A stretch of 64,000 nt of DNA from Escherichia coli. GTDB taxonomy: Bacteria; Pseudomonadota; Gammaproteobacteria; Enterobacterales; Enterobacteriaceae. A model generated the notes under the pieces. The model had not been told where the DNA came from, ran no database searches, and saw nothing but the letters and a program-made list of their open reading frames with translations. Each line of letters begins with the position of its first letter. Within the stretch, counting starts at the first letter, position 1. The position numbers were made by a program, and so were the translations under genes. The DNA is taken from the NCBI RefSeq assembly GCF_016026235.1, contig NZ_CP065613.1; one strand, given 5' to 3'. Below are positions 1 through 2,996 of the stretch, piece after piece.

Positions 1-627
1 AATGCCAACTCGAGCAATAGTATATTAATAATTAAGGGAGCGAATAAATTTCTTTCCCCGGAAGATATCGATCGAGCTGCAGAAGATCTGAAAAAATGCA
101 AATTGATCGTTTTACAACTGGAAGTTCAACTGGAAACAGTTTACCACGCGATTGAGTTTGGTAAGAAAAATGGTATTGAAGTGTTATTAAATCCGGCTCC
201 GGCATTGCGTGAGTTAGATATGTCTTATGCCTGCAAATGTGATTTCTTTATCCCGAATGAAACAGAACTGGAAATATTAACCGGTATGTCGGTTGATACT
301 TATGATCATATTCGTTTGGCCGCACGTTCGTTAGTTGATAAAGGGCTGAACAATATTATTGTTACCATGAGCGAAAAAGGCGCATTATGGATGACCCGCG
401 ATCAGGAAGTCCATGTTCCTGCATTCAAAGTAAATGCTGTTGATACTAGTGGCGCTGGTGACGCATTTATTGGTTGCTTTTCCCATTATTATGTTCAAAG
501 CGGTGATGTTGAAGCCGCTTTGAAAAAAGCCGCTCTCTTTGCCGCTTTCAGCGTCACAGGGAAAGGTACGCAATCATCTTATCCGAGTATTGAACAATTT
601 AATGAATTTTTAACCTTAAACGAATAA
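1..627 (+). CDS. deoK: PfkB/ribokinase-family sugar kinase, 3' portion (gene starts upstream of window); probably deoxyribokinase
   Basis: Frame 1 is open from nt 1 to the stop at 625-627; translation carries the ribokinase C-terminal DTSGAGDAF motif. Symbol inferred from kinase-permease-DeoX gene order, from memory. Confidence 0.6.
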   Translation, partial: NANSSNSILIIKGANKFLSPEDIDRAAEDLKKCKLIVLQLEVQLETVYHAIEFGKKNGIEVLLNPAPALRELDMSYACKCDFFIPNETELEILTGMSVDTYDHIRLAARSLVDKGLNNIIVTMSEKGALWMTRDQEVHVPAFKVNAVDTSGAGDAFIGCFSHYYVQSGDVEAALKKAALFAAFSVTGKGTQSSYPSIEQFNEFLTLNE

Positions 628-654
628 TCATCCTGCACAGTTAAAGGTAGCACT

Positions 655-1971
655 ATGAACGATAAAAACATCATTCAGATGCCTGATGGGTATCTGAATA
701 AGACTCCCTTGTTCCAGTTTATTTTGTTATCGTGTTTATTCCCGCTATGGGGATGCGCAGCTGCATTAAATGACATATTAATCACTCAATTCAAAAGTGT
801 ATTTTCGCTAAGTAACTTTGCTTCAGCATTGGTGCAGAGCGCATTTTATGGAGGTTATTTTTTAATTGCAATACCAGCATCCCTTGTGATTAAAAAGACC
901 AGTTATAAGGTGGCAATTTTAATTGGCCTGACGCTGTATATTGGTGGTTGTACACTTTTTTTCCCTGCCTCGCATATGGCAACCTACACTATGTTCCTTG
1001 CAGCTATTTTTGCGATTGCGATTGGCCTGAGTTTCCTTGAAACTGCAGCGAACACATACAGTTCAATGATCGGTCCAAAAGCCTATGCCACATTGCGGCT
1101 CAATATCAGCCAGACCTTTTATCCGATTGGTGCTGCGTCTGGTATTTTATTGGGCAAATATCTGGTTTTCTCCGAGGGGGAAAGCCTTGAGAAGCAGATG
1201 TCCGGAATGAACGCCGAGCAAATTCACAACTTTAAGGTGCTAATGTTAGAGAACACCCTTGAACCGTATAAGTATATGATTATGATTCTGGTTGTGGTCA
1301 TGGTGTTGTTCCTTTTAACCCGCTTCCCAACCTGTAAAGTGGCACAGACAAGTCACTATAAACGCCCGTCAGCAATGGATACGCTGCGCTATCTGGCTAG
1401 AAATCCGCGCTTTCGTCGCGGTATTGTGGCGCAGTTCCTTTATGTGGGTATGCAGGTCGCAGTATGGTCATTTACCATCCGTCTGGCGCTGGAGTTGGGC
1501 GATATCAACGAACGTGATGCTTCAAACTTCATGGTCTATAGCTTTGCCTGCTTCTTTATTGGCAAGTTTATAGCCAACATCCTTATGACGCGTTTTAATC
1601 CGGAAAAAGTATTGATTCTCTATTCCGTTATAGGGGCGCTGTTCCTGGCATATGTTGCACTGGCTCCAAGTTTCAGCGCGGTCTATGTCGCCGTCCTGGT
1701 AAGTGTTTTGTTTGGCCCTTGCTGGGCGACGATCTATGCAGGAACACTGGATACAGTTGATAACGAACATACAGAAATGGCAGGAGCAGTCATTGTTATG
1801 GCTATTGTCGGTGCCGCGGTGGTTCCGGCAATTCAGGGATATATTGCAGATATGTTCCACTCACTACAGCTTTCATTCCTGGTTTCTATGCTCTGCTTTG
1901 TCTATGTCGGAGTCTACTTCTGGCGTGAAAGCAAAGTACGTACCGCACTGGCTGAAGTCACAGCGTCCTGA
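655..1971 (+). CDS. deoP: MFS sugar:H+ symporter of the FucP family (probable deoxyribose permease)
   Basis: 438-aa hydrophobic ORF whose N-terminal region aligns by eye with E. coli FucP (LNDIL..QF, SAFYGGYF motifs); sits 28 nt after the kinase stop. Confidence 0.6.
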   Translation: MNDKNIIQMPDGYLNKTPLFQFILLSCLFPLWGCAAALNDILITQFKSVFSLSNFASALVQSAFYGGYFLIAIPASLVIKKTSYKVAILIGLTLYIGGCTLFFPASHMATYTMFLAAIFAIAIGLSFLETAANTYSSMIGPKAYATLRLNISQTFYPIGAASGILLGKYLVFSEGESLEKQMSGMNAEQIHNFKVLMLENTLEPYKYMIMILVVVMVLFLLTRFPTCKVAQTSHYKRPSAMDTLRYLARNPRFRRGIVAQFLYVGMQVAVWSFTIRLALELGDINERDASNFMVYSFACFFIGKFIANILMTRFNPEKVLILYSVIGALFLAYVALAPSFSAVYVAVLVSVLFGPCWATIYAGTLDTVDNEHTEMAGAVIVMAIVGAAVVPAIQGYIADMFHSLQLSFLVSMLCFVYVGVYFWRESKVRTALAEVTAS

Positions 1972-1982
1972 GGAGAACCGTT

Positions 1983-2996
1983 ATGAGTACGCGTATTAAT
2001 TTGTGGCGGGCGCTTTTTGGCGAGAAACCTCGTATCTTGCTGGAAAATAGTGATTTTACTGTCACGTCTTTTCGCTATGACAGCGGTGTCGAGGGGCTTA
2101 AAATTGCAAACAGTCGTGGACATTTGATTATTCTTCCCTGGATGGGGCAGATGATTTGGGATGCGCAATTTGATGGACACGGCCTCACCATGTGCAATAT
2201 GTTTCGCCAGCCTAAACCGGCGACAGAGGTGATAGAGACCTATGGCTGTTTTGCTTTTCATTCAGGTTTGCTGGCTAATGGCTGCCCATCTGCGGAAGAT
2301 ACTCATCTGCTACACGGTGAAATGGCCTGTGCCGCGATGGATGAAGCATGGCTGGAATTAGACGGAGATATGTTACGCCTTAACGGGCGTTACGAGTATG
2401 TAATGGGTTTCGGTCATCATTATCTGGCTCAACCAACAGTGGTCCTTCACAAATCCTCTACACTGTTCGATATTAAGATGGCCGTAACCAATCTGGCTTC
2501 TGTAGATATGCCACTACAATATATGTGCCACATGAATTATGCATATATACCAAATGCTACATTCAGCCAGAATATCCCGGACGAAATATTAAGATTGCGT
2601 GAATCAGTGCCTTCGCATGTTAATCCCACCGCTCAGTGGCTGGCGTTTAATCAACGGATTATGCAGGGAGAAGCCTCTCTGTCGACGCTGAGTCAACCGG
2701 AATTTTATGATCCAGAAATTGTCTTCTTTGCAGACAAACTGGACGCTTATACAGATCAGCCAGAGTTTCGCATGATCTCTCCCGATGGCACTACGTTTGT
2801 TACTCGTTTCTACAGTGCTGAACTAAATTATGTGACACGCTGGATCCTTTATAACGGAGAGCAACAGGTAGCCGCCTTTGCATTACCTGCAACCTGTCGG
2901 CCTGAGGGGTATCTTGCCGCGCAACGTAATGGCACGCTGATTCAGGTTGCACCGCAGCAAACGCGCACTTTTACAGTCACCACAGGAATTGAATAA
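1983..2996 (+). CDS. deoX: 337-aa soluble protein, possibly mutarotase/aldose-epimerase-like (DeoX-like)
   Basis: ORF 12 nt after the permease stop and followed by an intrinsic terminator; function and symbol rest on operon context and recollection, not on a recognised motif. Confidence 0.45.
   Translation: MSTRINLWRALFGEKPRILLENSDFTVTSFRYDSGVEGLKIANSRGHLIILPWMGQMIWDAQFDGHGLTMCNMFRQPKPATEVIETYGCFAFHSGLLANGCPSAEDTHLLHGEMACAAMDEAWLELDGDMLRLNGRYEYVMGFGHHYLAQPTVVLHKSSTLFDIKMAVTNLASVDMPLQYMCHMNYAYIPNATFSQNIPDEILRLRESVPSHVNPTAQWLAFNQRIMQGEASLSTLSQPEFYDPEIVFFADKLDAYTDQPEFRMISPDGTTFVTRFYSAELNYVTRWILYNGEQQVAAFALPATCRPEGYLAAQRNGTLIQVAPQQTRTFTVTTGIE

Follow-up and report, generated by a model that had tools for sequence, protein, structure and literature searches.

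A deoKPX gene block of the deoQKPX type next to an ISSso6 copy and nhaA in an Escherichia coli genome

Genes and features of the locus

The window analysed here (a stretch of 64,000 nucleotides from contig NZ_CP065613.1 of the E. coli assembly GCF_016026235.1, read on one strand) opens within a kinase gene. Frame 1 is open from the first base to the stop codon at 625–627 and encodes 208 residues, corresponding to the 3' two-thirds of a gene of the PfkB/ribokinase family that is truncated by the window edge and not by any biological event. In profile searches the fragment matched the PfkB family (E = 8e-37), and the anion-hole motif DTSGAGD is present. The second product matched the model TIGR00885 'fucP' (323 bits, cut-off 280) as well as MFS_1, and the third matched DUF4432. 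The genes are separated by gaps of 27 nt (deoK–deoP) and 11 nt (deoP–deoX), each containing a motif resembling a Shine–Dalgarno sequence (AAAGG and GAGGAG, respectively). A hairpin at 3017–3045 with a 12-bp stem including seven G–C pairs, followed by TTTTTT, has a predicted energy of -21 kcal/mol (z-score -3.1). A partial ribokinase-family kinase, a FucP-family symporter and a 337-residue protein, tightly spaced and closed by a clean terminator, had been proposed for the first 3 kb from the sequence alone, and all of these elements were recovered. Their coordinates and those of the flanking features are given in Table 1.

Table 1. Features of the deoKPX block and its right flank (window coordinates)
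Feature	Coordinates	Strand	Description
deoK, 3' part	1..627	+	Deoxyribokinase, PfkB/ribokinase family; codons 99–306 of 306
deoP	655..1971	+	FucP-like (FHS family) MFS proton symporter, 438 aa; probable deoxyribose permease
deoX (alias deoM)	1983..2996	+	337 aa, DUF4432, galactose-mutarotase fold; predicted deoxyribose mutarotase
Intrinsic terminator of the deoKPX operon	3017..3051	+	Homologous to the K-12 terminator after ilvN
uhpA 5' scrap	3054..3130	+	Ribosome-binding region and ~21 codons, start codon destroyed
IS debris mosaic	3131..3800		Pieces match annotated IS features in blastn
IS2-like and IS911-like (IS3-family) scraps	~3141–3326		blastn to annotated IS features
IS66-family tnpA fragment	~3331–3673		Holds an 84-aa ORF at 3417–3671
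IS66 tnpC scrap	~3690–3800		blastn to annotated IS features
ISSso6, full-length, IS110 family	3801..5489	-	99.9% end to end versus annotated ISSso6 copies
nhaA (context only)	5641..6807	+	388-aa ORF, named nhaA in matching genomes; backbone right of the breakpoint

The K-12 proteins RbsK and FucP belong to the same families as DeoK and DeoP (PfkB kinases and the FHS family of MFS transporters, respectively), and the catalytic and proton-coupling motifs are common to both pairs; the motifs around FucP Asp46 (ALNDIL) and Glu135 (LETAAN) are kept in DeoP. They are nevertheless paralogues (37% and 35% identity, respectively), with another operon context and another substrate. The partial kinase sequence reached 232 bits against the ribokinase model TIGR02152 (cut-off 300), and no ribose-transport (rbs) genes lie nearby. 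DeoP reached 284 bits against NF007524 (cut-off 427) and has no fucI or fucK neighbours. As DeoP passes TIGR00885 and falls short of these stricter tests, it was classified as a FucP-like family member and not as the orthologue of the fucose permease.

An AlphaFold2 model of DeoX was obtained with a pLDDT of 82 and a pTM of 0.85. A sequence search of the PDB with DeoX gave no match. A Foldseek search with the model placed the putative aldose 1-epimerase 3TY1 from Klebsiella pneumoniae first (TMq 0.79), followed by mutarotases of the GalM type (TMq 0.53–0.64; for example 1NSX from Lactococcus lactis). The predicted fold is thus like that of these enzymes, whereas identity in the structural alignments is only 10–14% and DeoX belongs to a separate Pfam family, DUF4432. 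His93, His183, Asp251 and Glu308 are invariant across 24 homologues and are candidate catalytic residues. One of the homologues (P0116) carries the source name 'deoxyribose mutarotase'.

The NCBIfam collection was found to contain no model for DeoX and none specific to DeoK or DeoP. The lack of specific DeoK and DeoP models explains the labels given by the NCBI pipeline: in matching genomes RefSeq/PGAP calls the three genes rbsK, fucP and an 'aldose 1-epimerase family protein'. Automated annotation keeps misnaming deoK and deoP as rbsK and fucP, and this mislabelling has already misled metabolic models (PMC10926698).

Comparison with the known deo loci

The block is collinear with the ilvN|deoQ|deoKPX|uhpA locus of Salmonella enterica, at 80.1% nucleotide identity over 3053 bp and with the same gene order, orientation and gene lengths (306, 438 and 337 residues). 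The kinase fragment is 94% identical to residues 99–306 of Salmonella DeoK; the full-length 306-residue DeoK of E. coli 042, the DNA of which is identical to that of the window, is 96% identical to it and 37% identical to K-12 RbsK. DeoP is 96% identical to its Salmonella counterpart over all 438 residues and DeoX 83%, and DeoQ, taken from strain 042, is 84% identical to Salmonella DeoQ. Positions 1–3805 of the window match E. coli 042 and O104:H4 strains at 99.97% nucleotide identity (99.9% for O104:H4), including the same downstream IS debris. Those strains have deoQ, a divergent gene of the DeoR family, ahead of the block and the vpe PTS operon after it; in FDAARGOS_943, where the locus is likewise 99.97% identical, deoQ also precedes deoK, and here it falls outside the window. 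In K-12 ilvN lies directly beside uhpA and the deo genes are absent. The sequence-only reading had named the block deoK–deoP–deoX, an operon missing from K-12, and both statements hold; the check that it proposed, for RbsK/FucP paralogues as the best matches, did not overturn it. No evidence contradicting the gene identification was seen in the analysis.

The deoQKPX genes of S. enterica reportedly form a regulon for the utilisation of 2-deoxy-D-ribose and are said to lie between uhpA and ilvN, and DeoM is reportedly a mutarotase. In E. coli the deoK operon is said to be carried on islands of the PAI(AL862) type, adjoining the vpe operon. For the locus of Salmonella and that of E. coli AL862, growth and transport assays have reportedly already shown deoxyribose to be the physiological substrate (work cited in PMC5382810). 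The Salmonella regulon literature is cited in PMC6365646, PMC10926698 and PMC13432705; DeoK of S. Typhimurium is STM3793, growth on deoxyribose needs DeoK, and ribose is also phosphorylated by the enzyme (PMC13432705). The arrangement of the deoK operon beside vpe has been published (PMC5382810, PMC6455142, PMC7545054), and O104:H4 strains are named as carriers of the locus (PMC5382810).

With these loci as a model, deoxyribose would be imported by DeoP acting as a FucP-like proton symporter, its anomers or ring forms would be interconverted by the mutarotase-fold enzyme DeoX/DeoM, and the sugar would be phosphorylated by the PfkB kinase DeoK to deoxyribose-5-phosphate. The housekeeping aldolase DeoC, encoded elsewhere and not in the window, would then cleave this product to glyceraldehyde-3-phosphate and acetaldehyde. 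The genes deoK, deoP and deoX would be co-transcribed up to the strong terminator, with the promoter and the repressor gene deoQ expected just upstream of the window. Established here from sequence and model are the gene identities and their orthology, the anatomy of the operon, the mutarotase fold of DeoX, the ilvN and uhpA scraps at the flanks and the frequency of the cluster in E. coli; the substrate, the way the genes are regulated and any part in colonising the gut are carried over from the literature and would apply here by analogy.

Positions 1–3130 are best explained as the downstream portion of the known deoQKPX module for 2-deoxy-D-ribose utilisation, in the version that many E. coli carry on genomic islands, with the adjacency to nhaA being secondary (estimated probability of about 0.93). 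That the genes are instead what the automated names suggest, namely a second ribokinase, an L-fucose permease and an unspecialised aldose epimerase that act on ribose or fucose and not on deoxyribose, is very improbable. The names themselves, the TIGR00885 score above its cut-off and the activity of Salmonella DeoK on ribose would fit such a role; it is opposed by the contrast between 37% and 35% identity to K-12 RbsK and FucP and 94–96% to Salmonella DeoK and DeoP, by neighbours that include neither rbsDACB nor fucIKAO, by the exact synteny with the Salmonella deoQKPX locus and by the NF007524 score below its cut-off. It is also unlikely that the locus, although correctly identified, is a decaying and non-functional relic in which the parts beyond the window (the 5' end of deoK, the promoter or deoQ) or deoC are broken. 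Decay is visible in the surroundings: the lineage is rich in insertion sequences (IS-containing queries had 22–36 matching places in FDAARGOS_943), the neighbouring vpe IIC gene of that genome carries a frameshift, the ISSso6 transposase of the window is frameshifted and fimbrial genes past nhaR look truncated. Against this, both deoP and deoX are intact, their products being those of strain 042 (WP_000998350.1 and WP_000107474.1), and the only nucleotide that differs, at 1242, leaves the protein unchanged. The two-thirds of deoK inside the window is likewise unbroken and keeps the catalytic GAGD motif, and both deoQ and a full-length deoK are annotated as intact in FDAARGOS_943.

Of 5426 complete E. 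coli genomes, 1595 carried the deo cluster, which is therefore already known; the deoQKPX-type module identified here is an extra metabolic marker of the strain and biologically nothing new. The deoK operon is an acknowledged fitness factor that makes DNA-derived deoxyribose usable by Salmonella and many pathogenic E. coli, and a passage of PMC6455142 (citing Martinez-Jehanne 2009) links it to mouse gut colonisation.

Flanking scraps and origin of the islet

Positions 2994–3130 are 86% identical to the K-12 segment comprising the ilvN stop codon, its terminator and the start of uhpA. The translation of the uhpA scrap, VALIDDHIIVHSKFAQLL*, matches UhpA residues 4–21. Homology with the Salmonella-type locus stops at 3130, within this scrap, and IS debris begins there; the stretch of chromosome from which the islet arose thus has its right-hand limit at this scrap. 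At the other end, a 3' scrap of ilvN adjoins deoQ in E. coli 042. The terminator after deoX, which has a homologue at the same place in Salmonella, would thus be the old ilvN terminator of an ancestral ilvN|deoQKPX|uhpA chromosomal site. The native site between ilvN and uhpA is conserved and occupied across Enterobacteriaceae, with examples in Salmonella, Citrobacter, Raoultella and Leclercia among other genera. In contrast to Salmonella, with which the ilvN and uhpA flanks are shared, the cluster analysed here lies off the native site; it is part of a mobile islet that has IS debris at its boundary.

A passage of PMC5382810 (citing Bernier-Febreau 2004) presents the E. coli deo islet as an import from Salmonella. 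K-12 shares 90% identity with the ilvN scrap of the islet and 86% with its uhpA scrap, versus 75% and 79% for Salmonella (for uhpA, positions 9153–9230 of the Salmonella locus L004), and the ilvN scrap has at most 83% identity to any other genus sampled. This greater resemblance to E. coli argues against a recent import from Salmonella and is the one mildly new point of the analysis. The deo genes are only 80% identical to Salmonella at the nucleotide level, which equals the core divergence between the two species (81–85% for ilvBN and uhpABC). In a search of 100,044 species, each represented by a single genome, no donor closer than Salmonella was found, no match exceeding 84% amino-acid identity (DeoX) or 81.4% nucleotide identity, and no other Escherichia species was among the best 80 matches. 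A chimeric query joining K-12 ilvBN to the islet deoQ detected deoQ at an intact native ilvN in none of the 5426 E. coli genomes. A single ilvN breakpoint is common to 12 carriers among the matches listed. On these comparisons we lean slightly towards an islet that was Escherichia's own ancestral ilvN|deoQKPX|uhpA segment, which a mobile island picked up in a single event and which was lost from the native site.

Insertion sequences and the junction with nhaA

Sequence derived from insertion elements fills positions 3131–5489, and nhaA starts at 5641. The debris is conserved together with the islet (at least 80% of the stretch in 1306 E. coli genomes). Its 84-residue ORF matched IS66 TnpA models at 7e-18 and 1e-15 versus 2e-4 for IS3. 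An Rfam scan of positions 1–6000 gave only a sub-threshold match resembling AfaR within the debris (33 bits, where the gathering score is 100), and a small RNA of this type was rejected.

The ISSso6 copy is complete at either end and includes the gene for a DEDD-type transposase, although the frame of this gene is broken. The 375-residue transposase (intact frame 5358–4231) is frameshifted by a 1-nt deletion that reduces T6 to T5 at ~5087–5091, leaving ORFs at 4912–5406 and 4232–5041; one gap and one mismatch separate this copy from an intact one in FDAARGOS_943. The copy also carries a perfect 161-bp tandem duplication at 3804–4127. The sequence-only reading had described remnants of IS3-family and IS110-family elements: small IS3-family scraps do occur, whereas the 84-residue ORF is of the IS66 TnpA type and the IS110 element is a complete ISSso6.

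Compared with the deoK–vpe loci of E. coli 042 and the PAI(AL862) type, the islet is severed by ISSso6 112 bp before the vpe operon and then joined to nhaA. This deoX–ISSso6–nhaA junction is absent from all 5426 complete E. coli genomes. FDAARGOS_943, the only near-identical genome, has the same ISSso6–nhaA junction with mokC–dnaJ on the other side, and its deo–vpe islet is found at a distance of ~121 kb, in inverted orientation. Insertion of the islet beside nhaA was rejected: with mokC–dnaJ flanking the same junction in FDAARGOS_943, the nhaA side is not the islet insertion site. The islet boundary suggested from the sequence alone therefore holds where Salmonella-type homology ends at 3130 against IS debris, and fails for the nhaA adjacency, which is secondary and associated with ISSso6. 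Most simply, judged against the one comparison genome, this adjacency would be specific to the strain and due to an inversion of ~125 kb ending at ISSso6, in an IS-rich lineage resembling Shigella/EIEC; the deo genes would then stand beside nhaA because an insertion sequence rearranged the chromosome. The reciprocal mokC–ISSso6–vpe junction of such an inversion would fall beyond the window.

An assembly artefact, that is a collapse or mis-join at a multi-copy element in place of a real inversion, is a minor possibility. The closest genome has many ISSso6 copies, the 1.7-kb element exceeds the length of short reads, and the absence of the junction from the 5426 genomes would fit an error. IS-mediated inversions are, however, common in Shigella/EIEC genomes, and both junctions here fall cleanly on the exact ends of the element, with GCGCT on the left flank as in other copies. 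This ISSso6 copy also has two private features, the 1-nt deletion and the 161-bp duplication, and these favour a single physical copy having been read through.

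Gene content and assignment of the cluster

The features located are listed in the table. The sequence-only reading had described a sugar kinase, a FucP-like permease and a 337-aa protein closed by a terminator; the ORFs, the family matches and a hairpin followed by a T6 run were all found, and this description is confirmed. The deoK part, truncated by the window edge, contained the DTSGAGD catalytic motif and matched Pfam PfkB (E = 8e-37), with ribokinase (TIGR02152) as the top NCBIfam model. The intergenic gaps were 27 nt (deoK-deoP) and 11 nt (deoP-deoX).

Features of the deo islet and adjoining IS sequences (window coordinates)
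Feature	Position	Strand	Remarks
deoK, 3' part	1-627	+	PfkB/ribokinase-family kinase; frame 1 open from base 1, stop 625-627, 208 residues
deoP	655-1971	+	438-aa ORF; matches MFS_1 and FucP-like model TIGR00885
deoX	1983-2996	+	337-aa ORF; matches DUF4432
Terminator hairpin	3017-3051	+	G+C-rich 12-bp stem, then T6; -21 kcal/mol, z-score -3.1
IS-scrap patchwork	3131-3800		Matches to IS sequences
IS2-like and IS911-like fragments (IS3 family)	~3141-3326		Within patchwork
IS66-family tnpA fragment			Holds 84-aa ORF (3417-3671); within patchwork
IS66 tnpC scrap			After tnpA fragment; within patchwork
ISSso6 (IS110 family)	3801-5489	-	Complete; 99.9% identical to annotated copies

Over positions 1-3805 the window agreed with E. 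coli 042 to 99.97%, the single difference (at 1242) being silent; identity to O104:H4 and further strains was 99.9-100%. In 042 a divergently transcribed regulator gene of the DeoR family and a fragment of an ilvN pseudogene lie upstream of the deo genes, and a PTS operon (vpe) with a LacI-type regulator follows them. This deoK-vpe arrangement is known from E. coli NCTC 86, O104:H4 and LEE-negative STEC islands (PMC5382810, PMC6455142, PMC7545054).

The Salmonella locus was reached by a search with the 337-aa protein, and contigs encoding the Salmonella homologue were retrieved. Their order was ilvB-ilvN, a DeoR-type gene (minus strand), a 306-aa kinase, a 438-aa MFS protein, a 337-aa DUF4432 protein and uhpA-uhpB-uhpC-uhpT. 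The location, `between uhpA and ilvN', and the sizes of the genes are those reportedly published for Salmonella deoQKPX by Tourneux (2000) and Christensen (2003). The window was collinear with the Salmonella locus (80.1% nucleotide identity over 3053 bp). Identities to the Salmonella proteins were 94% for DeoK (window part; 96% for the full length, taken from 042), 96% for DeoP, 83% for DeoX and 84% for DeoQ (from 042), whereas identity to the K-12 proteins was only 37% for DeoK with RbsK and 35% for DeoP with FucP. The best matches are therefore not rbsK/fucP paralogues unrelated to deoxyribose loci, and the earlier deoKPX assignment stands, as does the stated absence from K-12, where ilvN and uhpA are 75 nt apart with no deo gene between them. 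The cluster is an already well known operon, correctly identified. In Salmonella, STM3793 is DeoK (PMC13432705).

A sequence search of the PDB with DeoX detected no chain. An AlphaFold2 model calculated with 24 homologues as input (pLDDT 82, pTM 0.85) gave 3TY1, a putative aldose 1-epimerase of Klebsiella, as its first structural match (TMq 0.79, E = 7e-17), followed by a series of galactose mutarotases. H93, H183, D251 and E308 were invariant in DeoX and the 24 homologues. Salmonella DeoX, renamed DeoM, is said to be a deoxyribose-specific mutarotase in which His183 corresponds to GalM His170 (work of Assairi in 2004); the predicted fold and the invariant residues fit this role. One homologue (P0116) bore the source name `deoxyribose mutarotase'.

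By orthology, DeoP, which keeps the Asp46 and Glu135 motifs of FucP, would take up deoxyribose through proton symport, DeoX/DeoM would accelerate the interconversion of the anomeric or ring forms of the sugar and DeoK would phosphorylate it at C5. Deoxyribose-5-phosphate would be cleaved by DeoC, whose gene belongs to the separately located deoCABD operon, and the deoKPX operon would be repressed by DeoQ, encoded outside the window. The pathway via DeoC and deoxyribose-5-phosphate is summarized in PMC6365646.

Distribution and origin of the islet

Of 5426 complete E. coli genomes, 1595 carried the cluster; their identities fell into two bands, one of at least 99% and one of approximately 98%. 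When each species was represented by one genome, deoQKPX immediately followed ilvN in Salmonella, Citrobacter, Pseudocitrobacter, Raoultella, Leclercia, Trabulsiella and others, and this location is therefore the ancestral one in the family; no version in these genera was more than 81.4% identical (nucleotide) to that of E. coli.

Homology to the Salmonella-type segment did not stop at deoX; it took in the terminator and ~21 codons at the start of uhpA and ended at 3130. Within window 2994-3130, the terminator that follows deoX was homologous to the K-12 ilvN terminator. Of the scraps on the islet (window 2994-3130 and L001 6377-6617), that of ilvN was 90% identical to K-12 but only 75% to Salmonella, and that of uhpA 86% and only 79%, respectively. 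Judged by the terminator homology and these K-12-like scraps, the cluster resembles an exact insertion, or deletion, at the point that separates the stop codon of ilvN from the ilvN terminator. At 80% nucleotide identity, the deo genes are as far from those of Salmonella as the flanking core genes of K-12 are from their Salmonella counterparts (81-85%), deoQ beside an intact ilvN was found in none of the 5426 genomes and the ilvN breakpoint was identical in 12 carriers among the matches listed. Together, these observations (scraps, core-level divergence, no native-site copy, shared breakpoint) favour one capture event, involving a segment of the Escherichia lineage, over the Salmonella transfer repeated in PMC5382810, which would be a modest refinement of the published view.

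In some E. coli genomes (H73-H77 of the deo-cluster search) the match extended no further than window 3000 or 3053. These genomes appear to be without the terminator and/or the uhpA scrap, and an alternative right boundary is therefore implied.

IS debris and the junction with nhaA

At least 80% of the debris at 3131-3800 was carried by 1306 genomes, and it therefore moves together with the islet. The IS3-family remnant proposed earlier was recovered as the IS2-like and IS911-like scraps, but the 84-aa ORF belongs to IS66-family tnpA. In Rfam, the AfaR sRNA of PAI(AL862) matched 3208-3434 (minus strand) below threshold, with 33 bits where the gathering score is 100 (E = 0.005); this probably reflects common IS-derived sequence and not a functional sRNA.

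The remainder of the window was ordinary E. coli backbone (nhaAR, ileS, carAB, cai, kefC, lptD, rapA, polB), 99.9-100% identical to only one of the 5426 complete genomes, FDAARGOS_943 (NZ_CP065615.1); the next best were 98.5-98.8% identical and all others at most 98.8%. FDAARGOS_943 has the same ISSso6-nhaA junction, with mokC-dnaJ-dnaK on the other side (the K-12-like order), and its deoQKPX-vpe islet is intact, ~121 kb away in the opposite orientation. In the window the islet is cut 112 bp before vpe and fused to the left end of the nhaA-side ISSso6. This is most simply explained by an inversion of ~125 kb with one end at ISSso6, in a lineage that is rich in IS elements and Shigella/EIEC-like; the reciprocal junction falls outside the window. 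The islet-ISSso6-nhaA junction was found in no complete E. coli genome searched, and a misassembly across ISSso6 is a less likely explanation. FDAARGOS_943 is itself IS-rich with many ISSso6 copies. Under the inversion, the IS elements do end the deo module, as the sequence-only reading suggested, but nhaA as the integration site is ruled out by the FDAARGOS_943 arrangement. The source probably belongs to a lineage of the Shigella/EIEC type that has few genomes filed as E. coli.

The ISSso6 copy and the nhaR side

The supposed IS110-family remnant is in fact a complete ISSso6. Two features are private to this copy. A perfect 2.0-copy tandem duplication (161-bp unit, 3804-4127) lies in the non-coding end downstream of the transposase gene, whereas the FDAARGOS_943 copy beside nhaA has one unit. 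The non-coding ends of IS110/IS1111-type elements encode a guide (bridge) RNA, which the duplication might affect. A T6-to-T5 single-base deletion (~5087-5091) shifts the frame of the 375-aa transposase (minus strand, 5358-4231), splitting it into two ORFs (4912-5406 and 4232-5041); either the copy would be inactivated or this is a homopolymer sequencing error. AGCGCT precedes both ISSso6 left junctions, on the deoX side (window 3800-3806) and on the mokC side in FDAARGOS_943 (L003 6000-6006, L003 being that stretch), and GCGCT is also at the breakpoint in the uninterrupted 042 sequence, which suggests a target-site preference or shared terminal bases.

Just past nhaR, window 7810-9468 (minus strand) holds ORFs of low GC content (36-41%) that are 319 and 228 aa long; in FDAARGOS_943 their counterparts are a hypothetical protein and a fimbrial usher. 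The usher ORF appears truncated in the window, and FDAARGOS_943 has additional IS5 and IS1 insertions there.
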